DNA of 64,000 nucleotides from assembly GCA_016906335.1 (NCBI GenBank), contig JADEYG010000012.1, positions 496,001 through 560,000 of the forward strand, read 5' to 3'. Under the pieces are notes generated by a model. That model searched no databases and was not told where the DNA came from. It was given only the letters and a program-made list of their open reading frames with translations. This DNA comes from Novakomyces olei. Taxonomy: Eukaryota. The translations under genes were made by a program, and so were the position numbers. Of the stretch, positions 5,042 through 54,951 are shown piece by piece (the first letter of the stretch is position 1; each line of letters starts with the position of its first letter).

Positions 5042-6657
5042 TCAACGCGAATCATTAGGTTCATTCAAAAGCCGTTCAGACAAAGCCCGATTTTGTACAG
5101 ACTGGGACATTACCAAAGACGAATGAACAGCATCGTCCCATAATTTACCGCGCTCTACAATTCCAGAATCTTCGTTTCCTCCAAAATCCAAAGAGCCATC
5201 CTCACCGCCCCTCTCAGTAACAGTGGGTGAGCGTAAACGTGGTGGCCTGCCAACAAGCAATTCAGGCTCTTCAGAGACACCATTTAAACTCGGATGCTCG
5301 TCCTCCTCGAGCAAAGGATTAACATTTGGAGCTGCTGCCAAGCTTCCACGATGAGAACGAGTGCTCGAATTACCGCCATTAGCGTCAGCGGACGGAAAAG
5401 CAGACCCAGATGGTCGAGTGATAGATATAGGCAATGAAGTAGCGAAATCAGAACCTGCAACATCAGAGTCAAGAACAGGACTTTCGGATCTGGTGGAGAT
5501 ATCACTTTTGTCCTCACCCACCGCGCTTTCACTTGCATCACGTAAGGATTCCGGTACTTGGGCAGACGGAAAAGATTCGTCATCCAAATCGAACAAAGAA
5601 TCCTCATAATGCCCATCCCTGCTATTATCTGTGTCTTTATGTTGTTGCTTTTCACCTGCAGATACAGCGGCCTTGTCTAGCGCACCAGACATGGTTCGTT
5701 TCATGGGTTCGCGTGTATCCAAATCCGCCACCGGCGGATCGTACGTCGAAGATTCTCTGCGTTTTGTGTTTGCCAGCAAACTGGACGCGTCCTGCACTCG
5801 GGAATCGGCTGTTGACTCTTCAATACTCGCCTGTCTTGATTTTAATTCTTGACCCCTTCTTGAGCTGCTTTCATCTCCTTGTTTCACTGTGTCCACCGGT
5901 ATCTGCCGGGGAAAAGGCTGTGGTTCTTTGCGACTCTCTCCAAGAGACAGCTCCCTGTCGCTAGCCAGTTCCGCTTCGCTTCGTCCATGTTCGCTCCTGC
6001 TCTGTGTACTGGCGTCTCTGTTTCCACGATCGATGCTTTTTGCTACTACGCTGGACAAGTAATCCGCTTCTGCCGCTGCCCGAGTACGAAACTCTGCAAA
6101 TTCTCGGGCAACGCGTTCCGCATAGTCGCTCTGTGCTGCGAGTAGACGCGCCCGCACTGAATCGCTTGTAACAACGATACTCGGAGGGACTGCGCTTGGC
6201 CAAAGTGCAGTCAGATCTACACTTGCTATTTGCGGGCGGCGCAGAGATTTGGGCAGTCGGGTTTCTGGGTAGAGGACAGAGGCACAGGTTTCCTCAGTGA
6301 AGGGGAACGCGTCCTTGTCCACGTGAACAAAAGAGTCCTCTGATATATGTGCAAAGGGCAAAGGCCGCTCCATCATACTGTCACACAGCAAACAGCTGAT
6401 TGTGCAAACTTGGCTGTCCTGGCTGTGGTCGCGCTCAGTGCGAAACGCTAAAGAATCTTGCACTGCCTGCGTCTGTTAGCCACCAGACGACTCGAATGTC
6501 TGTCTGCCTTTAACCCTCAAGGATTAACGACCGAAAAAGGATTAAATCTCGAAAAGGATCAAACTTGAAAACCGCTTACCACAGCAATATCTTGTACACT
6601 AAGCTGTACGTCATCGCTTTTTATTCTTACGTTGCCACATCCGCACAACGTCCTCAT
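5042..6657 (-). CDS. Uncharacterised protein of about 500 aa with N-terminal CxC...CxxC and a disordered C-half; PRAS40/Lobe-like motifs (intron 6467-6579)
   Basis: Exon 1 MRTLCGCGNVRIKSDDVQLSVQDIAV splices in frame (GTAAGC..GCTAAC..CAG) to the 473-aa ORF. Confidence 0.8.
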
Positions 6658-7008: not shown

Positions 7009-8490
7009 TCAATGCTCGCGAGGAGCGCTCGGTGTCGCCTGCCGTGCTTCGAGCCTCTCCCCATATGTTGGCCGAAAAGTAGGCATAAGTGCCACTGGTT
7101 TGGGTTGAGGGTCTTCACGGAAAAACTCATGCGCCAGAGCTTCACTGGCAGAAATACGTTGCAACGGGTCCATTGTTAAAAGCCTCTGCATCAAGTCGCG
7201 GCCTACGCGAGAAAGACGGGGAAACTTTTCGTCCAGTGCCCTACAAGTTTGCTCCTGTGCACTTATTTTCGTCGCTGGCAGACTGATCTTGTCGCTGTTT
7301 GGCAACTGCCGAAACCGTGGCCACTCTTTTGCCGACGGAACCCCGAGCACTTCAAACAGCTGTTGTAAGTAAGGCTTGTCTATTAGTGGCATACCTTCAC
7401 AATCTGGTTGAGCTCGCTTTTGCCCGCCAGCAAAGGCTCTCGCTGGAGCAGTTCGGCAAAAATACAGCCAATGCTCCACACGTCTATTTTATCCGTATAT
7501 CGTGTGTCGCCAAATAGTAATTCTGGAGCCCTAGAAATTAGTAAACTTACGGGGAAACAGACAAGATAAGTCAACAAAAAACTATTTTATCTTTATACAA
7601 ATACTGAATACGAGCACTGACCTGTACCACAATGTAACAACGACCGGAGTAAGCCGTTCATCCGTACCAGAAATGTTCCTTGCCAATCCGAAATCGCCCA
7701 ATTTGAGGATACCTCGGTTCGTCATTAGTATATTGCTCGTTTTAATATCGCGATGAACAATGTGATTCTCGTGGAGAGCGACGGCAGCACTGAGCAATTG
7801 ACGCAAAAGAGTCTTTGTTTCCGATACCGTGAATGTCTCTTGCATATCAAGCAGAAGTGCTTTGAGATCGTGCTCTATAAACTCCATAATCAAGTAAACT
7901 TCATCCAGATCTTTGCCGACACACACCTTTAGCGTATTAGCAAATACGATTTTAATCAATACTGCAAGGCCTACCTCTTGCAAATCCACAATATTCTCGT
8001 GTTTTACCGACATGAGAGCATGAATCTCTCGCAATCCCGACATTGGAAATCCCGCATTTTCTCGTGCAAGTTTAAGGCGCTTTACTGCGACAATACGACC
8101 AGTCGCGTTCTCGCGAGCACGGAAGACTATACCATAACTGCCTTGCTCAATATGATTTAATCGTGTAAATTCGTCAATTCCGCGACACGGCCGTAGCCAT
8201 CGGCCAAGCACAGCAGGATTAGATTTTTTTAGTGCCTTTTCACGATTATTTTCGAGCGTTTTCTGTTGACTGTCGCTCTCAACTTCCACATTATCGCCGA
8301 CTTTATTGTCACTGGTTTCATGCGATTTTCTATCACGCACAACTCCCGACGCTTCCAAATCCTTATTCACATTTTGCTCTGATTTTAATTGTGCCTTGAT
8401 CCTGCTCGATTCTTTTTTGCGCCGTTTTTGGTCTCGTCGCGCCACCGAATCTTCCTCGTCAGACTCGTCCCACCTCGATTTAGGAGGCAT
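7009..8490 (-). CDS. cdk11: CDK11/PITSLRE-family cyclin-dependent kinase, 3 introns
   Basis: [42 protein letters not shown] across splices; charged N-terminus. Confidence 0.9.
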
Positions 8491-8592
8491 CTGTTGATAT
8501 ATTATTCGTATTTATCATGTATTTATTAGTAAATAATTAATATAGTTTGTAATTTATATAAAATTAAGATAAATCATAATCTCAGACTGACA

Positions 8593-11983: not shown

Positions 11984-11996
11984 AAACCCTAACCCT
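11984..11996. promoter_or_regulatory. AACCCT/telo-box (AAACCCTAACCCT) in the PAF1-PPR divergent promoter
   Basis: Two tandem CCCTAA-type units between divergent start codons. Confidence 0.6.
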
Positions 11997-12067
11997 ATCT
12001 ATTATTATTATTATTATTTAATAATAAATTATTATTAGGACTCGTCGCAAGGACTTGTCGCAAGAGC

Positions 12068-13240
12068 ATGGCTCTAAAAGGCTGGCGCAGAGAGCGGGTA
12101 AAGCCATTACGTGGCGGCCGCGTAATACCCTCTCGCCCACTGCGGCCGGTTGTTATTGACAGATCCCAGAGTTTACAAGTGCAGCGTGTACAGCTGCAGA
12201 GGCACGTCTACAGCCTTGTCAATTCTCCAACTGCCCCGGCTTCACGAGTTTTGCCAGAGCTCAAACGCGTTTGTCAGCCCGGCAATGATCATTTGGTGGG
12301 TATCCGCGTCCTCAATCAGATACTGCACTATTACTTAAACGTCCGCGACGACAGGCGTCAGGGCAGAGCTTTTCTACAGCGCATTCTTCTTCCTCGCAGT
12401 GAACCGGATCGGGTTACGTTCAACACGCTCCTAAAGCACTTGAGCCGGCACGCAAAAGCGCCCGGTGACCGGTACAGTCTTGGGCTGTTTATGCGTGTTT
12501 TGGGGCAAATGCACCAGTTGAAGATTGAGCCGGACGCGTACACGTGGGCAATGATACTCAAGGTAGCGAGGCCTCAGGATATACCCAATTTGCTACGGTT
12601 CATTGAGCGATCAGGTGTCCATCTGACTGCTCCTTTGCTCGGCGTGGCCTTGAGCTCGGCACGTACGGACTGGCGTGCGTGGCTTGAGCAAAAGGCAAAA
12701 GTGCCTGCGCCACAGCGATTAGCTGTAACGAATACCCTTCTGCGCCATGCAATCACGAGGAACGAGATTAGCAGTGCAGAGGTTTGGCAGGTGGTGGATA
12801 CTTGGGCACAGCATTTCGTGTTTGACCACTATATATACAGTGCAATGCTGAGTAGGGCCCGGCACGAACGTGACTGGGAAGCGGCACTGGACACCCTGCG
12901 CCGATACTACCGCCACCATACCGTTAATGAACACGTTCTTTCCCGATTATTACCGGCTTTTGCGGCTGCAGGTCGCCGCCGGGAGCTGGTGACAGCGGTT
13001 GAAATTGCACATTTAGAGATTGCTGTAATCGGACGGCCATTAAAACAGTATCTACGGAGGCTGCCTATAGAGGTGCCATTGCAGCCAAAGCCTGTTTCAG
13101 AGGCCTGTATACAAGAATGGGAGGCATTGACAGGGCAGCCTTGGCACCGTCGTGCTCTTAATGAGAGACTGCGGCAGCAAACAGAGGTGGAATTTGCTCT
13201 TACTGTGCAGAAATGGAGGGTCACGAATATGATAGAGTAA
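12068..13240 (+). CDS. Pentatricopeptide-repeat (PPR) protein, probably mitochondrial
   Basis: PDRVTFNTLLKHL, PDAYTWAMILKV, DHYIYSAMLS repeats; Arg-rich N-terminus. Confidence 0.8.
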   Translation: MALKGWRRERVKPLRGGRVIPSRPLRPVVIDRSQSLQVQRVQLQRHVYSLVNSPTAPASRVLPELKRVCQPGNDHLVGIRVLNQILHYYLNVRDDRRQGRAFLQRILLPRSEPDRVTFNTLLKHLSRHAKAPGDRYSLGLFMRVLGQMHQLKIEPDAYTWAMILKVARPQDIPNLLRFIERSGVHLTAPLLGVALSSARTDWRAWLEQKAKVPAPQRLAVTNTLLRHAITRNEISSAEVWQVVDTWAQHFVFDHYIYSAMLSRARHERDWEAALDTLRRYYRHHTVNEHVLSRLLPAFAAAGRRRELVTAVEIAHLEIAVIGRPLKQYLRRLPIEVPLQPKPVSEACIQEWEALTGQPWHRRALNERLRQQTEVEFALTVQKWRVTNMIE

Positions 13241-26266: not shown

Positions 26267-26830
26267 TCATGACGCAGGAGCATTACTCCGCTGTTGTTGA
26301 GAGTGTTTACGAAAACAGCCTCGGCAGACGGGAAAAATTGAAGCGTTAGTGCGCTTGTCTTCTTGATAATAATCATAAGCAATATCATTAGGCCCGAGAG
26401 GCAGACGTTGCCCTGTACATTTTTTACAAAACACTTTACCGCACCCGCGGCAGTGTCGTTTGACAACGAGCAATGGAGTAAACTTTCTTTTACACGTGGG
26501 ACAGCTGCTTACAATCAGCTTGTTTTCCCAAGGGATTTTAGGTTTAATATCTGGACCCAAGAAGAATATACGCGTGCGCCGGGCTCCTAGAGCCGCCGTT
26601 TGCTGTAAATAAGACATGCCTGAAATGTTTCCACTGCCGGACTGGTCTCTGCCTCCGCTGGACAGCGCGTGATGGTAGCTTGGGGGTATATGCCGAGCCC
26701 CCATACTGTACCGTGGTAAAGGCTCGGCCTCGTGGTCCTCAAAATGGACCATACCACCGTCCCCGTCATGAACAAAAACCCGGTTATCGCCGTCCGCGGC
26801 CGTTGGCACTTCATCACGGATCGTAGCCAT
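26267..26830 (-). CDS. Small FYVE-like zinc-finger protein with PY motifs
   Basis: CPTC...KRHCRGCGKVFCKKC...VCRGC with eight Cys; LPRY and PPSY motifs; likely start MATIRDE. Confidence 0.8.
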   Translation of the reverse strand: MATIRDEVPTAADGDNRVFVHDGDGGMVHFEDHEAEPLPRYSMGARHIPPSYHHALSSGGRDQSGSGNISGMSYLQQTAALGARRTRIFFLGPDIKPKIPWENKLIVSSCPTCKRKFTPLLVVKRHCRGCGKVFCKKCTGQRLPLGPNDIAYDYYQEDKRTNASIFPVCRGCFRKHSQQQRSNAPAS

Positions 26831-28638
26831 ATTTTGATGAGACGAGCGGCTCGTATCGGCCTTTGCTCTTGTATATGCAATACTTTTGTCTGCGCGAGCG
26901 CGCGCCTTTGGCGCGCGCACTTGTTGTATATTATTATGTCCTTTTGCTTCTCAAATCTCGTGCGAGCAGGGGACCGGCAGGTTTGTCTGTCCTCCGCCCC
27001 GAAGCGATTCTTCCACTGGACAATCGGGGTAGAAGATATATGCGCAACTGCCTTTTCTGCCTCGTCTTCAAATCCTCCGTCCGGGTCAAGTGTCCTGGCC
27101 GCCCGTCACAGTGGTGGGGGCAATTTCCTTGTTTTTTTCCTTTATATTTACAAGGCTTAATGGGCAGGACACATGTCTACTTTTGTAATGCGCATAAAAC
27201 AAACGTTATTGTATTAGGTAATTAAGGGCACCGAGGATGATATAATGATGGAAAGAAAGGCGGTTGGTTTGGTAGCAGAATTACAATGTGGGCGGGCGCG
27301 GTTTAGTGCGGGCGCTATACACGGAGCTTTTTCTCGTGGTCGGCTTATATGGAAAGTACGCTTTAACCGGGTTTCGTGTACAGCCAAGTCCATGTCCACT
27401 CTTGTCTATTACCCTCACATATACTGTGTCTGTCATTGTTGGCTTATGCGCCTTCTCGCAGCCATCCGCATCTGTTTATTATGATCGTGTGCACTAACCA
27501 GATTTGGATCGCTGTTTCTATCTGCGTAGTATATGCACGCACATGCAATTCTGCTGGAATATTACTTGAACATTGACCTGTTTTAGATCGGGTTCTATTA
27601 ACCCTTTCTCGGTTTCTAGGGTTTATTTGTGTTTGCCTTTCTGTGTCGGCCCGCGGCCAGGCCAAGGTCTGTACGGCTGTGCAGTTTGCTGGTAGGCGCG
27701 CAATATACAGCCCAATGTACTACTGTTGAAAAATTTTGCACGTACTTTTGTTTATTGTTTGTTATATATTTGTTCTTTGGGGATGGTACACTGTAATCTT
27801 TCTTACATAATGTGCACACACGACATAATAGACCGTGACGTACCCGTCGCATTGCTGTAGAATGAATACATATTATTTACAATTATTCCGCGTCCACTCT
27901 TATGAGCCGGCAATGGACGCAACATCGGCTCGGTATGTTTGTAGACTCTTCATCTTTTCAAATCCGTCAACTGAATCTTTCCGAGTGGAAACTTGTAATA
28001 TACCCAGATTTAGTTAACAAACTAGTACAACGGTGATATATATGCCTCTTGTAGAATAGTAACAGAACGAAATGAACACAAAATATATATACGAAGACTG
28101 CCAGTTGCGTCTGTGGGTGCTGCTATTGTTTGTTTACGCGAGCCTTGGATATAGATCACTCAAAGCGTGGCATGCATACTGCTTCCACATGGACATTCAA
28201 GGAAACAGATAGACTGCCTAAAAGACCATACGCAATAAACAAACGACAAATGTCTAAACTCGTGATATGACTAGCAGAGCCGGATCTATATGACACGCAC
28301 ATGACACTGGCCCCAACTCTGACCAACGAAAAATAAATAAATAAAAAACCGGATCTACTAGAAAGATGTTGGCGCACTACAAACTACTAAACTGATCATT
28401 AATGATGTGTAAACATATATTGAAAGAAGCATGTATATACAATTGACAGTCATCCCTGATTCCCAAAACCAAATGCCATAATTAAACCCGAAAATGATTC
28501 ATAAACCCGGAATCAGTGAACAAGTCACTTGTAACCAGATCACATTCTTCTAATTGGGATCCATTGACGATAAAGTTCAGACGAGGACCACTAAAGAGCC
28601 GAAACTCGCAAGAGCTCAAAAGCAATAGATTAAGCTTC

Positions 28639-30177: not shown

Positions 30178-32794
30178 TGTTGTTTTTTGATTTATGTCGC
30201 ACTATTTGCCTGGGAATTATACGGATAGGGTGATGTTGACTTGTACATAATTAAATTGGCTCCTGCCTCCGTATTTTCAGTCATACATATAAATGGTTCA
30301 TTACACATTCGACTTTTAACCAAATGTAAAGTACTTTGTATTTTGCAGTGCTGACTTTGATGTTTATATAGTCATGTAGCGCGAGTGTTTGATGTAAATA
30401 TTTTTTTTTGTAACATGCTGGGTTCACATTGGTCTACTCGCGTCTAGGCAATTTTGAGGCAATGATATTTTTATGTCTCCGATCGAGATAGTTAAATTTG
30501 GTCTAAGCATTCGTACTCTTGTGCCGAACCAGGCTACAGGTCCGCGAGACTTGTATGGCTACGTTGATTATGCTGAAAATATGCAACAATAATAATGTTA
30601 AATCGTTAGTGTATAGGACGCGGTCAATAGAGAAGAGAGACGCTTGGGAATATTTTGTTTTTTTTTTCATATCGTCCGTGCGTCGGTACTAATACCTTAT
30701 CTGGAAATCACTTGCGTGTATTTGAAGGCAAGTCGCTTTTTAACACTATAAGAGTGGATGATGTACTATTTTATGAGACGTGTAAACGTGTTATGGGTTC
30801 TTGAATGCTGTCTTTTTCAATTCAGAGCATGAAAAGTTGGACAAGGATAAAAAAATGATTATCTGCGCTGATGTTATGTTGTATTGTTCACTTGTAATCC
30901 TATATTCGTGTATTAATTGCATGTAGACACTGGCAACAATCTGTGTTTGGCTTTCTATTTAGCTTGATGTTTTGAATTCGCATATGTTGGTTCCTCTAGA
31001 AATGGCTATATGTTCCGATCCTGTAGATATGTAATTAAATATCGGCAACGGCACCATTTGTATTTGGAACATTTGGGAGCTATTTTGTGAATAGGATAAA
31101 GCAAGTATTGGAAACCATTAGAATTACAGCTGTTCTTGTTTCGGTATGTGAGTTTGATTAATTTTATAGAATATCAGCGAATAATGAAATTAGGGTTTTG
31201 TCCTTCCAATGCCTACGTTATAGAACGATCAGACTAGTGGGATAAAGAATGAAAATAAGTACAAGGAGACAAGTGGTGAGATTGAACAGTCAATCTTTTG
31301 AGCGACTATGATAAACCGACAGAATGAATGCACATGGAACTTTTCACGTGCCCGAGAATAAAAGTATATGGATATAAATGAAAGCATCCAAACCGTAATA
31401 CTTTTAACTTCTTCATTACTTGCTGCATGCTGGTCTTCCCCGCATTTTCGGTCTCCTTATAAGTCTTGAATTACTTTGGCGACGGGTAAAAAGCTGCTGC
31501 TCGGCCGGGTAGGCCAATGCCTACAAGGAACAACTTTTTTCAATATATAAACAAATTATCAGATTAGTAGAGTACAAATCTTATTTGTTGTGTGCCTAGT
31601 CTTGAGCCAAAATTATCTGATCTTTTTCCGAAATAGACATCTTCGCCCTGCAGACGGCTTTTGACGACTCTATTTTTGTCGTGTTTGCTGACACCAAGAA
31701 GCAAAGCTTGAGCCTAATTTGTGGAGAGCCATAGTATTCGAATTATTTAAATAGTGTACACGATTGCCTGCGCTACAATAGTTCAAACGTACCGGGACAG
31801 TGGCCGTATTAAAATACGCCATTCACTTATAGCACGTGCATAGCGCGATCAGGTTTCAATTATATATAGGCCGCGCGGGTCGTCATTAAAGAATACTACA
31901 GAAAGAACAAGGTACTGGAAAAAAAGAGGGACAAGAATTGAGCGCGGTGCGGTGTGGCTTTTCCTTGACGCCGCTCGTCAGGTCCAATCCACCGGGCTGG
32001 TTACAGCGCAATAGGCACGCACATACAAATTCGCAATAAATAAACAAATAATAATTAATTAATAATTAAATAATTAAATAATTTACGACGACATTAATTA
32101 TACTTGGAATACTACTCTGATCCCAAGTCAGGGCTTTGCCGACAAATGCAAATCAGCGACGGCATTACATACTGAAAGCACAAGAACAGGAAACGGCAGT
32201 ATACGGCCGCGGCTATTTTATCGACACACTCTCAAGCTGATTATCGCTACATTTCAATTTGCATACTCAGCGACTGGTCGATCAGTTCCAAGGTACCGTC
32301 AACGCTAACACGGGACAAACTCTCTATACCCAAGCCAAAATTCCGGAGCATAGGAACGTACAACGGACGGAAAGCAACTAGCAAAATTAAAAAGGCAAAG
32401 TGTGGATTTGAAGCGACTCCCGGCACGCTGGACCGGTATCTGTGTGGGAAATATTTGTTGGGGTTGAACGGAAAAATTACTGGGAGAGGAGCATTTCGCA
32501 TACAGAGGCAAACGGTACAGAGCCGTGTGGAAAAAAGGGGCAAGGGTCCTCATTGGGCTTTGCTTGTCTATCAATATATACTTGAAGCCTGTATAATATT
32601 TGTTTGTTTACTGATCGTGTATTTGGTACCTGGGCGCTGATTGATTCCTTGTAACTGGGTTGATTCTACGGTCGACAATACCCGAACTTCAAAAAATTTT
32701 ATTTTTATTTTTCTGTATTGTGTGAATATTTGTGAGGAACATCGCGCACGCGTGACCTTTTCTGCTGTGCTCGGCTCATTGTGCGAAAAAAAGC

Positions 32795-35338
32795 GTGGGC
32801 GCTCCCCTTATCGTATTCCAAACAATTCCCGACAAAATCGAATCAAGTGATATGATAGGTGAGCATGTTTTAACCACACATATGGAACTTGATCGGACGG
32901 GAAAGGTACCACGCAAGCAAGAGCATCTCGTGCCTGGCAAGGCATTAGTGCGCACTGGAAAGAAGCCCCATGATTTGATTGCCATGAGGAAAGCTAAGCC
33001 CGCGCATGTGCATATGTGTATTATGGCGGAAAAACAAGCCAATTACGCGCCTCTTCCGCCACAGGAAGCTCAGAGCGGAGCCGATCGGAATACTTATAAA
33101 CACACAGGGTGTGATCTTCCAGGTGCATGTGTTGAGAGTGTGTGTTGCGAGAAAGATCATTCAATGGACGGCCCTCTTCACTATATCCACACCAACCACG
33201 GAAACGGTTTGCACGTAACGAATACTTCATCTCCGTCTGTCCCGCGAAGCAACAGCAACAGTCACAATAACGATATTACTGTATACAGCGGCGATTTCTG
33301 CAAGCACACCCTTGATTATGCACACGGATCTCCTACTATGAGCAATTATTCTAATTTTTTATTGAACAATCAGCATTCTCATGCTCAATTCTACAACAAT
33401 GCCACAGTCGAACAACAATCTTCAGCGTCAGCGATTGCAACACAACACCAGCAATTACCAGATAGTGCGCAAGACTGGCAGCAAGAATACGTACAAAAAA
33501 ATTATCGTCCTTCTGAATTAGATGGTGAAATCAAAGCTGTCAGTGGAGACAATTACCACCTGCAAACCCTACGCGGGTCCGGGGTTCAGGAGGGTGCGAC
33601 AGACTGTGAGTGTGATAATAATCCATCCTTTCCAATGGCCGCTTCTCATGCTCCGACATCGTTTATCTTAGACTTTTGTGATGCTGGTTGGCTGCCTGTG
33701 TACGAGTGTGATGATCAGCATTGCTCTGATCAAGAGCATAATGCTTTATGCCATATACCCGATTGCTCAATCAACGAGCCAAACAGTTTACTCTGCACAG
33801 ACTCTGCGTGTAATAAACCAGACTATTCCGTTGTTCATTGCAGCGAAGAGGACTTGTATTCCTGCACAGCGCATGGAAACTCTTGCGACTTTCACGGTAC
33901 TCATAACAACCAACACCAACACCAACACCACCATCACCATCATTTTATTCAGAATCGGCATCAAACACCAAATCAGACTCAAAAGGCACACCAGTACCTG
34001 GAAAGCAAAGTCCATCCTATGAACGATGGAAAGCTTGACAAGGCAGGAGACAAAGCAAGGATTGCTGCTATGGACCCAGTAAAGGCAGATAGTTCTATTG
34101 CATTCGTGGACCCGAGCAATAACAATACTAGTATATTAGTTGAAGAAAGTCACAGCAAGCCTGGAGCAGCAGCAAACATTATGCGGGCGGCTTCGTTCCC
34201 TCTTCTTGAAAGCTGCTCACCTTCCTCGACACAGTCAAGCTTTACACTGAACGGAACGCTTAGTGCCAAGAGCGATACAAGCATAAACGCGTATGCGCCT
34301 TTAGAATTCGATTCCGACAGAGCCAAAAGGCAATGCCTGGAGAGTGCTAGTCAAAAGCCTGCTTCAGGTCGTCATATGACATCAACACGGACTGAACCAA
34401 TGGTACAAATGCCGACAGACTCACACATGATGCATCCTGGGCTTATGACTGCCAGGGGAAAACCTGACATTTACCATTGCCACTGGGATTCCTGCCAAAT
34501 GACGTTTCCCGATGCTCTAGAGTTCAATGAACACATTATAGACGATCATTTGGCTGCCTTGCAAGCGGCAGTGGAGGAGGACAGTTCCGTAATGGAACAG
34601 CTAGCGAGTATCTCGCGTACGGAAAATGAAGGTGGTACTCAATCAAAGGCAAATGACATGGACAGTAAACCCCAAATGGAAGGGGAATCGCAAATTACAA
34701 CAGAGATGGCAAATGCCAATGGCTATGGCAATTTGCTCGAATGCAAATGGGATTCCTGTGGTGCACGGCCAAAGGCAGTAAACGAGTTACGCAGCCATTT
34801 ACGCAGTCACTGGCAGCAACGTGGAGGTGGACCCTTGGCAGAGCATCATCAATGCCAGTGGGTAGTGGACACTGGGACAGGAGCAATCTGTGGAGAGTGC
34901 CTTGGATCCGCTGAGGATTTGAGTAAGCATGTAGTTAGCAAACACGTAGGCAGCCGTAAGCCTACTTACACATGTATGTGGTCAGAGTGTTCTCGCGAAG
35001 GCCGGCCTTTTGCACAAAAGCAAAAAATTCTAAGGCACCTTCAGATCCACACGCACCACCGTCCATGGGCCTGTGATATTTGCGGACACAGATTCAGCGA
35101 GGAACATGCCATGATGCAGCACCGTAGAACGCACACGGGCGAGCGTCCTTTTGTATGTGGAGAATGTGGGAAGGCTTTTTCTGCAAGCACAGCTCTAAGT
35201 GTGCACATGCGACTACATACAGGACACAAGCCGTTAATATGCCGATACCCAGGCTGTGGTAAACGGTTCAATGAATCCTCAAACCTTGCAAAGCATATGC
35301 GAATGCATGCGCGGCAGGAGGAGAGGCATTCTCTGTAA
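32795..35338 (+). CDS. ZAP1: Zap1/ZafA-type zinc-responsive C2H2 transcription factor; true start uncertain, possibly ATG 33023
   Basis: Cys/His-rich N-terminal region; seven C2H2 fingers, including FAQKQKILRHLQIH and FNESSNLAKHMRMH. Confidence 0.82.
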   Translation: MGAPLIVFQTIPDKIESSDMIGEHVLTTHMELDRTGKVPRKQEHLVPGKALVRTGKKPHDLIAMRKAKPAHVHMCIMAEKQANYAPLPPQEAQSGADRNTYKHTGCDLPGACVESVCCEKDHSMDGPLHYIHTNHGNGLHVTNTSSPSVPRSNSNSHNNDITVYSGDFCKHTLDYAHGSPTMSNYSNFLLNNQHSHAQFYNNATVEQQSSASAIATQHQQLPDSAQDWQQEYVQKNYRPSELDGEIKAVSGDNYHLQTLRGSGVQEGATDCECDNNPSFPMAASHAPTSFILDFCDAGWLPVYECDDQHCSDQEHNALCHIPDCSINEPNSLLCTDSACNKPDYSVVHCSEEDLYSCTAHGNSCDFHGTHNNQHQHQHHHHHHFIQNRHQTPNQTQKAHQYLESKVHPMNDGKLDKAGDKARIAAMDPVKADSSIAFVDPSNNNTSILVEESHSKPGAAANIMRAASFPLLESCSPSSTQSSFTLNGTLSAKSDTSINAYAPLEFDSDRAKRQCLESASQKPASGRHMTSTRTEPMVQMPTDSHMMHPGLMTARGKPDIYHCHWDSCQMTFPDALEFNEHIIDDHLAALQAAVEEDSSVMEQLASISRTENEGGTQSKANDMDSKPQMEGESQITTEMANANGYGNLLECKWDSCGARPKAVNELRSHLRSHWQQRGGGPLAEHHQCQWVVDTGTGAICGECLGSAEDLSKHVVSKHVGSRKPTYTCMWSECSREGRPFAQKQKILRHLQIHTHHRPWACDICGHRFSEEHAMMQHRRTHTGERPFVCGECGKAFSASTALSVHMRLHTGHKPLICRYPGCGKRFNESSNLAKHMRMHARQEERHSL

Positions 35339-36743: not shown

Positions 36744-36785
36744 AGCCGTTACTCATCACTCTATACATAACCTCGATCTATCACA

Positions 36786-37712
36786 ATGGCTGATCAGGCA
36801 AACCAAAAGTCCAACTTTTTGTTGGACTTCCTCATGGGCGGTGTGTCCGCTGCCGTCTCCAAGACGGCTGCCGCCCCCATTGAGCGTGTGAAACTTCTTA
36901 TCCAGAACCAGGATGAGATGATCCGCGCTGGCCGTCTTTCTCGCCGCTACGACGGTATCTCTGAGTGCTTCTCCCGTACCATTAAGGAGGAGGGCGCCGT
37001 TTCGTTGTGGCGTGGCAACACTGCTAACGTTTTGCGTTACTTCCCTACCCAGGCTCTCAACTTTGCCTTCAAGGACTACTTCAAGAAGATCTTTGGCTTC
37101 AAGAAGGAGCGCGATGGCTACAACATGTGGCTGCTCGGCAACATTGGTGCCGGTGGTGCTGCTGGTGCTTCTTCTCTGTTGTTTGTCTACTCTCTCGACT
37201 ATGCTCGTACCCGTTTGGCCAACGACGCCAAGTCGGCCAAGAAGGAGGGCGGTGGACGCCAATTCAACGGTCTCGTCGATGTGTACCGCAAGACTCTTGC
37301 CTCTGATGGTGTCCGTGGCTTGTACCGTGGCTTTGGCCCCTCTGTTTTGGGTATTATGGTCTACCGTGGTCTCTACTTTGGTCTGTACGATTCGCTCAAG
37401 CCTGTTGTCCTTACTGGTCCTCTTGAGGGCTCTTTCCTCGCCTCTTTTGCTCTCGGATGGGCCGTCACTGTCGGATCTGGTGTCGCCTCGTACCCGCTTG
37501 ATACCGTACGTCGTCGCATGATGATGACTTCTGGCGAAGCCGTCAAGTACAGCTCTTCCTTCCAGGCCTTCCAGCAGATCGTCTCCCAGGAGGGCGCAAA
37601 GTCTCTGTTCAAGGGCGCTGGCGCCAACATTCTGCGTGGTGTTGCAGGTGCTGGTGTGCTGGCTCTGTACGATCAAGTGCAGCTTTTGCTCTTTGGCAAG
37701 GCCTACAAGTAA
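36786..37712 (+). CDS. AAC: Mitochondrial ADP/ATP carrier
   Basis: [14 protein letters not shown] signature; strong codon bias. Confidence 0.98.
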
Positions 37713-38463
37713 ACATTAGGACACGTTTGCTTTAGTGTATACGTGTGCGCGATATTACTACACGCTAGTATTGTTGTTGTTTTGCTGCAGCTTCTACTCC
37801 CGCCCCTAAAGTTTTTGGGCGTAGAATTAATAAATTATTGCACTAGAACCGTGTTTGCCTGTAATGCCTGTTTTATTATTGCTCCGAATCAAGCTTGCGT
37901 CGACAGTTTGGTAATTGGCTGTATTAGAGTCGCTGTAAACTGCATTTGCCAAAGTAAACTTGCAAGCCGCTCATTGAATAGATATCCGTCCGTCTGCTTT
38001 TAAATTGCTCTCCGTCTGGACATTATTTGTTACCGAGATAGCCGCGGCCAATCGTATTCTTTTGCCATTCAATAATATCCCACATTCTAATTATCTCTAT
38101 TATTATCTCTATTATTATCTCTAATTATCTCTAATATTATCTCGATATCAATTCTGTTTAACCTTTAATAATCGGAGCTCCACATAATATTAATAACCGC
38201 TTCAAAGTATGAATATTTCCTACATTATTATCGATGTATATATTCCAATATTATGGACAGATGAATACACTCTTGTCGCGCGACCACGGAAAATATACAA
38301 AATATATAAATATATAAATACATAAAAAAGATAAAAATATTAAATATATAAATATATAAAAATATAAAAATATATAAAATATATCACGGCTGGCGATAGC
38401 GGCGTGTAAGACCAGAGCAATTGCGAGGGTACGGTCCACTATATACGGCTGCGCTATGAGAAA

Positions 38464-51292: not shown

Positions 51293-52617
51293 ATGCAGGC
51301 TGTTTATGCGCCAAACGGAAATCTTACACAGCCGCCCGTCTCCGCCGCTCAACGCGCTGGTATTGATGACGCACCTGACGCGTCAGCGGTAATGGAAACA
51401 GACGCCAAAATGGACGCGGGTGACGCAATGCAAAGGCGGAGGTCTCCCGTCACGGGGTGCAGTGCGTCACCAGTAGAACAGGTCAAAAGCGACGATTACA
51501 CTCAAAATTCTGATAATAACGAGGGCAATAGTGACCACTTTAATAACGAAACTTCTCCACAGCCTCCACCAACTCCACCGAAACGTGGATCTGCTTCAAA
51601 ACACGAAGAGTCTCCGCGGCATTATTCGCGTTGGCGATCACATCACAGCCTGGAAATACACGATCGGGCAAAGATGGCAAAGGTAAGCGGGCCCATAATA
51701 GCAGTTTAAATTTGAATAAAAGGATGATTGGAAAACGTTTATTTATTTACCAAAGGGTTTGAAATGGTTATGAGAATGGATACCCTATCAAATACAAAAC
51801 GTCTTTTTTTGCATTTTTTTTGCATTATTTTAATCTAAAATTAAAAATTTTTTTTTTTTTTGATTAAATGATTATTTATTCTAAACACGTCCAGCTATCC
51901 CAGCAACTCCGAAACAGACTTTCCTTTGCCAAATACAAGTTGGAAAATGGCTGGCAAAATCAAACGATTGATCAGTTAGAGGGAAAACACTTGTCGCCGC
52001 AGCGACAAACGCCTAAAGTCGAGGCCAGTGGCGGGGCTGGTACGACTGCCAGCGCTTTTGTTTCCCCAGCAACGCATGATGCATTGCGTAAACTGAACGG
52101 AGAGCCTGTACCTTCGGCAGGCGAAATTCCATCGGCTGGTTTAAGAGCTCCCTTTTCCCCCGAAGATCCGATCCCGGCCAGGCTGTCCAATTTGGAGGAA
52201 ATATCACAACGATCGCCCCGGCGACAAAGGCATACAAGCAGCGATCGAGGTCTTGGACGAGGGTACGAGGAGACTTCTGCTCGGCATTATACAGCACCTT
52301 ATTTAGCCCCCTTGCAAGTTCCAAATGGCCGGTCATCGGGAAATCAGTCCATATCAACGGAACCTCTTCCATCTGCCGGGTCGGGGCCTGTCGGTAGCGG
52401 AATAAGTGGACCAAGATCGGACGAAGAAGATGCAGCGGCAATGATGCTTATGCTGGGAAGCCCGAGAGCTGCTAGTCAAGATCGGAGCTTTATCTATCCA
52501 CGAAGTAGTACAGCCACGAGAAGTGATGCGCTTTTAGGCGTTTCACAACCCTCTTTAGTTCATAGTGCAGCTATTTCTCATCAGGGCGATGACACAGAAG
52601 ATGAAGATGACACGTGA
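51293..52617 (+). CDS. Whi5/Nrm1-family G1/S transcriptional repressor (intron 51683-51894)
   Basis: GTB motif LRNRLSFAKYKLENGWQNQTIDQLE; many S/T-P sites. Confidence 0.85.
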
Positions 52618-53229: not shown

Positions 53230-54951
53230 TCAATCCTCATCATCAGAAAACTGGTACCTGTTGTCCTGTAAATCCTGATTGCCAGACTGCTGTGCACGAG
53301 ACATTTCCACACTCATCATCTTCCTTCCCGCCTTGGCGCTTGACCCGGCCGCGTCCAGGTCTTTAGCGGGTACGGGGTTCCGTCTTTTCGTCCTTAGCTC
53401 TGGAGTTGATGTCCCCACGGACTGAGCACGGGCACGTGCGTTTTTCCGTGGTTTGAAGCCCTTTTCCTCAACATCCCCAGTCTCGTTATGAACTTCCCAC
53501 CAATCCGACGGTTTCCGTCGGACTCGAGATTCCGACAGTGGCCAAATTGCCAAAGGAGATTTCCCAAAAATAAGAAGCTTATCGAGCGCACTGCGACGAG
53601 ACCGGGGTTTTCGCCAGCGGCCGTCAGCATTGGGGTTCTCCATGCTACGTGGAGTAGTATTTGCAGATTTAAGAGGTTGCTTGGGCGTTGTATTTTCATG
53701 TAAGTGTAATGATTGCTGCTGCGTATTGCCGTCAGCATCACCCAAATCTTGTACAGGGCTCTTTGGCTGTAGAGGGCTATTAGCCTGTAGAGGGCTCTTT
53801 GGCTGTAGAGGGCTCTTTGGCTGTAGAGGGCTATTAGCCTGTACAGGGTCGGCGATAGGCACTCGCTTTGCTCTGGGCAAAAGACGTGTGCTGTCTGCCG
53901 TCTCCAGGTGCGAACGTGTTCGTTTCAAGTTTGAGGGATTAGAAGCTGGAAGCTGTGGATAATCATTCACTCCGTTTCCAGTAGCCTCAATAGAATCTCT
54001 TACTCCTGTATCCGAGTCAGAATTGAGCAATGACGTATCGTCTGCCGGCTCGGCGTTATCGCGATCACTGTCTGCCGTGTATCTCTCTTCATCGCCGAGA
54101 GAAAGAGAGCCGCTTCGCGATCTCGGCTTATGGCCGCCTTCGTCTTCAAACCGGCTGACCTGGCCACCGTCACCAGGTGCATACAATTTTTCAGAGGAGG
54201 ATGCTTCCCCGCCTATGCCGGTACTGTCGGGCAATTCACGGGGGAGTATAGGCGACAGTCCAGCGTCGGCTATTCCGTTATCCCTGCCTGCCGATGAAGG
54301 GGCTTCAGCCTTATCGCCGAGAGCAGCCTTATCACCGAGAACAACCTTATCGCCGAGAGCTTCCCCGTCACGTGCATCTTTCTTGTAGCCGACAGATTCC
54401 ACACACGAGTGCCCGTCTATTTGGGCCGACGTGGGCGCAGGCGAATAGCCTGCCAGGGAACCTACTGGCGTAGTACCACTATCAGCCTTTTCCTCTGCGG
54501 AAGCAGTACGAGGCCGCACAGCGCCACGGGCGTTATTCACAGGCGCTATTATTTCGTCCTTCTTATTCGTCCGCACAATCTTGGTCTCATTAGCCTTTTG
54601 CCAAACAAATTATGGGGAAAATACCACTGGCAAAGGGCTGTGTGTGTACAAACGGCCCACATGCTCTTTAGCATCAAATGCTACCGGCAAAGTCTGGACA
54701 CGTGGCGAATTGCCTTCTTTTGGCGATGAAGACGCTAAACGGCGACGCCAATTCTCGAGCGCTCGGCTCTGTGCCGCAGTGATTCCTGTTGGTGAAGGCG
54801 CACGCGGCTCTGAGCTATTTGTCCCGTCACGAACGGCAGCAGGATTTGTGCTGGAAGTGCGCTGCTTTTTTTGCGCATCAAAGATGATAGGCGCAGGCGA
54901 AACCTGGCTAATTGGCTTGCCAAAGAGCGATTCTGCAGACAAGATGCCCAT
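53230..54951 (-). CDS. Disordered protein of about 557 aa with a CENP-C-type motif (intron 54580-54624)
   Basis: Two ORFs joined in frame by GTATTT..GCTAAT..AAG; SRVRRKPSDWWEV; SPLQ(PK/AN) repeats. Confidence 0.78.

Follow-up and report, generated by a model that had tools for sequence, protein, structure and literature searches.

Does a fungus possess a regulator of TOR complex 1 (TORC1) of the kind represented in animals by PRAS40 (AKT1S1) and in insects by Lobe (PF15798)? The question is raised by a single gene in a 64-kb window (the whole stretch of DNA that was analysed), whose product had been described in an initial annotation as resembling PRAS40/Lobe in the order of its motifs. PRAS40 is described as animal-specific (PMC3236823), whereas the protein considered here is fungal. 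The remark of the initial annotation that PRAS40 is not known in model yeasts agrees with PMC9223334, according to which yeast and C. albicans have no PRAS40 homologue. A survey of fungal TORC1 from 2025 tables PF15798, and the parts of it that we examined report no fungal PRAS40 (PMC11836306). Our literature search found no claim of a fungal PRAS40 or of a fungal PF15798 member.

Gene structure and genomic context

The gene lies between an RPS16 gene and a CDK-like kinase gene. Its open reading frames and splice signals yield two exons on the minus strand (window 6657-5042) and a product of 500 aa:

6580..6657, minus strand: exon 1, 26 codons, MRTLCGCGNVRIKSDDVQLSVQDIAV, carrying Cys5 and Cys7 (CxCG knuckle)
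6467..6579, minus strand: predicted intron, phase 0, 113 nt (donor GTAAGC, branch site GCTAAC, acceptor CAG)
5042..6466, minus strand: exon 2, 474 codons (6466-5045) plus the stop codon (5044-5042)

The start ATG at 6657 is preceded by an in-frame TGA 18 nt upstream. No ORF in the region is longer than exon 2 (477 codons from stop to stop), and exon 1 joins it in frame across an intron whose signals, judged from the sequence alone, are canonical, with the GCTAAC branch site eight bases ahead of the CAG acceptor at 6467. No other acceptor both keeps the frame and lies at a suitable distance from a branch point. Using the next AG downstream would bring an immediate stop, which leaves the 6467 model as the only sensible splice. 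Contigs from three DNA runs were identical to the window wherever they covered it, with no variation. We take the two-exon gene to be real, with an intron predicted from its signals, and the translation of exon 1 (26 aa) gives the spliced protein the beginning MRTLCGCGNVRI that the initial annotation had read. According to that annotation, invertebrate Lobe/PRAS40 proteins may likewise start with a motif of the CxCLN type.

Whi5, a Zap1-type finger and Pkinase_fungal score above the Pfam cut-offs in the window, beside housekeeping genes. Since the Whi5-like and Zap1-type families are typical of fungi, they support a fungal origin of the window. Neither a Kog1, Lst8 or Tor gene nor any tRNA gene or Rfam family at gathering score was detected within the 64 kb. 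Other features of the window are as follows:

7012..8511, minus strand: CDK-like protein kinase directly upstream of the gene, in two ORF pieces (7585-8511 and 7012-7488), with a Lys/Arg/Glu/Ser-rich N-terminal extension of ~115 residues ahead of the kinase domain
26270..26950, minus strand: FYVE zinc finger ORF (E 3.4e-13)
32756..35335, plus strand: Zap1-type multi-C2H2 zinc-finger protein
36771..37709, plus strand: mitochondrial carrier with three repeats
36759..37715, minus strand: antisense ORF of 319 aa on the DNA of the carrier, without a family
51868..52614, plus strand: Whi5-like motif protein

We presume the upstream kinase to be of the CDK10/11 type. Pib2, which regulates TORC1 in yeast, is likewise a FYVE protein. 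Long ORFs thus occupy both strands of the carrier DNA, and the antisense one is probably an artefact of the codon usage of the carrier.

Protein layout

The product (500 aa, 54.4 kDa) is acidic, with a pI of 4.75. All six of its cysteines fall within the first 87 residues (5, 7, 47, 51, 54 and 87) and include CGCG at residues 5-8 and CLLC at residues 51-54, the latter being the later CxxC that the initial annotation had noticed. Beyond the first knuckle, the following elements were distinguished:

6383..6406, minus strand: second cysteine group CTISCLLC (Cys47, Cys51 and Cys54), a candidate zinc site together with Cys5 and Cys7
5957..6163, minus strand: long α-helix (DSSP) and possible coiled coil, exon-2 residues 102-170, corresponding to full-length residues 128-196
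5063..5164, minus strand: weak C-terminal helix, exon-2 residues 435-468 (pLDDT 50-59), located after the RLRSPT site

The N-terminal cysteine-cluster domain is probably zinc-binding. The helical segment predicted in the initial annotation reappeared at exon-2 residues 102-170 in a single-sequence AlphaFold2 (AF2) model of the exon-2 protein, where it is the sole confidently predicted element (pLDDT 79-94 over residues ~110-150). In the same model, pLDDT stays below 50 over the first 100 residues and over almost all of the tail, and the mean over the whole exon-2 protein is 47.8. Folded alone, without exon 1 and its first knuckle, exon-2 residues 1-110 gave a mean pLDDT of 35.5. The ~300 aa that follow the helix form a Ser/Asp-rich, disordered tail.

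Motifs of the tail

Three motifs of the tail were found where the initial annotation had placed them, and in the order that it had likened to PRAS40 (a TOS-type motif, then an SLP island, then RxRxxT). Together with a further candidate site, they are:

5750..5761, minus strand: RRES, residue 262, a candidate basophilic (PKA/AGC-type) site by regular-expression match only
5576..5596, minus strand: LFDLDDE, residues 317-323, a TOS-type motif (F-acidic-hydrophobic-acidic-x)
5420..5446, minus strand: FATSLPISI, residues 367-375, an island like the Ser183 region of PRAS40
5222..5239, minus strand: RLRSPT, residues 436-441, a basophilic site with Thr441 as acceptor and Val at +1

The TOS pentamer FDLDD (residues 318-322, preceded by Leu) matches, at the level of sequence, the TOS-type Raptor-binding motif of the PRAS40 family, and LFDLD also fits the clathrin box L-phi-x-phi-[DE] exactly. 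The Ser183-region island of that family has its counterpart in FATSLPISI, downstream of the TOS-type motif. Apart from RLRSPT, which also contains an SP site (Ser439), the protein has no RxRxx[ST] site; a regular-expression scan of the protein found no 14-3-3 mode I motif.

Comparison with PRAS40 and other TORC1-associated proteins

PRAS40 and insect Lobe share with the target an acidic disordered region in which a TOS-type motif is followed by SLP[VI]S[VI] ~50 residues on and by a single RxRxxT site ~70 residues further. In PRAS40 the TOS motif lies at 129-133, ~54 residues from Ser183. The corresponding distance in the target is 52 residues (F318 to S370), followed by 71 residues from S370 to T441. 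From the site numbers in PMC5620322, the second interval of PRAS40 (Ser183 to Thr246) amounts to 63. The consensus of the TOS motif is F/acidic/hydrophobic/acidic/hydrophobic, of which PRAS40 carries the variant FVMDE (PMC6325617); its mTOR sites are Ser183 and Ser221 (PMC5620322), and phosphorylation of Thr246 by Akt frees the protein to 14-3-3 (PMC6325617). A further likeness lies in the language-model features of the target, which are nearest to those of arthropod PRAS clusters.

The differences are also considerable. The target has no HMM or pairwise sequence match to PRAS40/Lobe. Neither its cysteine cluster at the N-terminus nor its long helix is known from human PRAS40. It is also about twice the length of the human protein, which has a mass of 27 kDa (PMC7464330). 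PRAS40 binds the FRB domain through a helix (212-232) and mLST8 through a β-strand (PMC6325617), and its amphipathic FRB helix stands between the Ser183 island and the Akt site. In the target, a low-confidence single-sequence AF2 model contains no helix in the interval from the SLP island to RLRSPT (residues 375-436), and the only helix of the tail, which is weak, comes after RLRSPT. If this C-terminal helix were an FRB-type docking helix, it would lie on the opposite side of the basophilic site from that of PRAS40.

Fungal proteins that engage TORC1 offer partial parallels. In S. pombe, TOS docking on the Raptor orthologue operates for Psk1 and Atg13, the Atg13 motif being FDIDT (PMC8542387), and these fungal proteins have in common with the target a disordered region that bears F-D-[IL]-D-x. 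Unlike the target, however, Psk1 and Atg13 are known kinase and autophagy proteins with domains of their own, without an SLP island and without an inhibitor role. The Ecl1 family of fungi consists of small, zinc-binding inhibitors of TORC1 whose partner is Mip1/Raptor (PMC11984688); an Ecl1 protein and the target would have in common that they are fungal, rich in cysteine and held to curb TORC1 by way of its Raptor subunit. Ecl1 proteins are only ~80 aa long, and their cysteine pattern looks different from that of the target. Kinship with Ecl1 was dropped, since Pfam assigned the exon-2 protein no family and thus no Ecl1.

Motif statistics

To gauge the frequency of the motifs by regular expression, we shuffled the tail 20000 times with its composition preserved. 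Of these shuffles, 2.0% held a TOS-type pentamer and 0.095% held SLP[IVL]S[IVL]. The target does contain RLRSPT at the C-terminal RxRxxT position, but an RxRxx[ST] site was present in 42% of the shuffles. All three motifs in order occurred in 0 of 20000, in a test that is post hoc because the motif definitions were picked after the sequence had been read.

We also scored the protein without gaps (BLOSUM62) against three PRAS40 islands and compared the ordered sum with that of 20000 shuffles. The islands were FVMDE with one flanking residue on each side, and two strings quoted in the initial annotation, YAKSLPVSV (S183) and RPRLNT. The best matches were:

TOS island: LFDLDDE, score 19, p=0.062 versus shuffles
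Ser183-region island: FATSLPISI, score 31, p=5e-5 (1 of 20000 shuffles)
Akt-site island: PPRLRS, score 15, p=0.38 versus shuffles

The ordered sum over the three islands was 65; the shuffles averaged 38.1 (sd 4.8, maximum 64), and 0 of 20000 reached 65. When the 121 window ORFs with 100 aa or more were ranked, the target came out top, with a runner-up score of 46. That score belongs to the ORFs at 11993-13237 (plus strand, 415 aa) and 53233-54609 (minus strand, 459 aa), both without a Pfam family at E≤1e-5. Because only the SLP island is individually rare, the statistical weight falls almost wholly on these nine residues. The TOS and Akt-site islands are compatible with PRAS40 yet common. This scoring is likewise post hoc.

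Searches for relatives

Alignment-based searches returned no relative of the target. Pfam hmmscan assigned the 474-aa exon-2 protein to 0 families at E≤10, and neither PF15798 nor PF25809 was found at E≤10 in two sets of fragments (4 and 3); the HMMER filters discard most matches above E ~0.1. The profile similarity to PRAS/Lobe on which the initial annotation had partly staked its proposal was thus missing from the exon-2 protein and all 7 fragments. One fragment gave a chance-level match to an MSL3 chromodomain (E 0.3). At E≤1e-3, phmmer found 0 hits among 1.84 billion cluster representatives. When 5.8 billion proteins were searched with word seeds, there were 0 hits for the whole protein at E≤0.01 and 0 hits at E≤10 for each of residues 290-474 and 1-150. 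A sequence search of the PDB with the whole protein and two fragments recovered no PRAS40 chain, and its sole matches were chance ones to the HhoA protease (E 0.3-0.65). From this absence of hits, the large protein collections seem not to hold the target.

Metagenomes gave a similar picture. A scan with the target protein produced 192 pattern matches, 0 of which were confirmed, whereas a scan with a neighbouring NDUFAF7-like gene recovered 12 loci whose best segments were 32-57% identical. That the nearest metagenomic relatives of a housekeeping neighbour are only this similar suggests a poorly sampled lineage. At these 12 loci, tblastn (E≤1) detected no relative of the target and none of the kinase or of RPS16. 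Across the protein collections and these metagenomic loci, no chain of detectable homologues connected the target to animal PRAS40/Lobe members.

The protein-language-model search (ESM Atlas, a collection of 7.7 million clusters) behaved differently from the alignments. With the whole exon-2 protein as query, ranks 1-3 were arthropod clusters in which PF15798 is annotated on 35%, 65% and 25% of members (scores 0.91, 0.90 and 0.90; 205, 199 and 194 of 256 features in common), and PF15798 accounted for 6 of the 10 best matches having a family. A Basidiomycota cluster at rank 7 (0.84) was the sole hint of the phylum. Residues 1-150, which contain none of the three motifs, again retrieved PF15798 arthropod clusters at ranks 1-3 (0.83, 0.82 and 0.81), although fragment scores near 0.8 are leads only, and a fragment embedding may not be free of its context. 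Clusters of STEEP1 (PF25809) were present in both lists, at rank 9 (0.77) when the whole protein was the query and at rank 5 (0.80) with residues 1-150. The Atlas recognition of the target was 1462. Of the proteins with a known family, 91% reach the mark of 2300, and below it the tool itself grades even a high score as weak evidence. Nevertheless, composition alone should not single out one small family from 7.7 million clusters in two queries. As only 25-65% of the members of the arthropod clusters carry PF15798, many true members evidently escape the Pfam model, which in turn softens the negative HMM result.

Proposed mode of action

The kinship with PRAS40/Lobe proposed in the initial annotation therefore stands in part. 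It is favoured by how the islands are ordered and spaced, by the outlying score, by the Atlas hits and by the working of TOS docking in S. pombe, and the profile and PDB pairwise comparisons yielded no match. Also counting against it are the missing helix ahead of the basophilic site, the equally good fit of LFDLD to a clathrin box and the distribution of PRAS40, published as animal-only. The protein combines three parts, an N-terminal cysteine-cluster (probably zinc-binding) domain, a long helix and a disordered tail of ~300 residues. In the model that we infer, from zinc binding and PRAS40/Lobe homology to every binding and phosphorylation step, the tail would most likely act as a PRAS40-type docking module for TORC1. 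LFDLDDE would dock in the TOS pocket of Kog1/Raptor, and the serines of SLPISI would be TORC1 phospho-acceptors or provide a second contact. A basophilic AGC kinase of the Sch9/Ypk/Gad8 type would phosphorylate Thr441 in RLRSPTV, whereupon the protein would be released, perhaps onto 14-3-3. It would thus be both a tightly bound substrate and a competitive inhibitor of TORC1.

We hypothesize tentatively, at somewhat less than an even chance, that the gene encodes a PRAS40-type TORC1 docking protein, whether by descent or by convergence. Common descent with PRAS40/Lobe specifically, by which the regulator would predate the animal-fungal split and survive in at least one fungal lineage, seems doubtful to us. 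The ancestral architecture under common descent would comprise a zinc module, a helix and a tail with TOS, SLP and AGC-kinase sites, a reading that we consider rather unlikely when taken whole. Because the profile test failed, the target is not to be filed as a PF15798 member; the claim that it may act in the manner of PRAS40 survives.

Alternative explanations

The protein could instead be a fast-evolving, lineage-specific disordered protein unrelated to PRAS40, with a role elsewhere and with motifs that are chance or generic products of a Ser/Asp/Arg-rich tail. In our view this is about as probable as a PRAS40-type docking protein, and likewise short of an even chance. It would fit the emptiness of every alignment-based search, an Atlas recognition below the reliability mark of the tool, and the ease with which shuffles produce RxRxx[ST] sites (42%) and, less often, TOS-type pentamers (2%). 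Only a single island is rare by itself, and with very many proteins screened, an island expected once in 20000 will surface somewhere. Less easily accommodated are the joint ordered score, which 0 of 20000 shuffles attained, and the choice of the PRAS family by the Atlas among 7.7 million clusters in both queries, of which one lacked the motifs.

Other readings retain parts of the architecture and assign them differently. In STEEP1 (CXorf56, PF25809), a CxCG knuckle is followed by a CxxC and, at the C-terminus, by a coiled coil, an arrangement that the cysteine pattern and helix of the target resemble. On this basis the target might be a STEEP1-like protein, that is, a CxCG...CxxC zinc module followed by a helix, whose long tail would serve membrane-traffic contacts and whose LFDLD, an exact fit to the clathrin box, would not be a TOS motif. 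The presence of PF25809 clusters in both Atlas lists agrees with this, but shuffled proteins attain such scores (0.77-0.80) in one case out of three, and neither the exon-2 protein nor its N-terminal fragments matched PF25809 at E≤10. Representatives of these clusters are 192-240 aa long, without a long tail bearing TOS, SLP and basophilic motifs, and the SLP island would be left unexplained. We therefore judge a STEEP1-like identity improbable; it would also be compatible with a PRAS40-type tail, because the affinities of the tail need not be those of the N-terminal domain. Still less probable, to our mind, is an ordinary TOS-recruited TORC1 substrate like S. pombe Atg13 or Psk1, neither an inhibitor nor kin of PRAS40. 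Fungal substrates with TOS motifs exist (PMC8542387), and a TOS motif with phospho-acceptor sites would suffice for one, yet the match over the nine-residue SLP island and the PRAS hits of the Atlas would be unaccounted for. As PRAS40 is itself a substrate, this explanation differs from a PRAS40-type docking protein mainly in affinity and outcome.

Implications

Should the resemblance to PRAS40 be due to chance, the gene would be one more lineage-specific disordered protein. If the PRAS40-type reading is true, fungi would have a direct inhibitory link from an AGC kinase to TORC1, which current pathway reconstructions list as animal-only, and the origin of the PRAS40-type inhibitor would shift back to the opisthokont ancestor. 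It would also mean that proteins recognisable only by their motifs can hide from profile searches across kingdoms, and it would provide a genetically tractable way to study how TORC1 is tuned by a bound pseudo-substrate.
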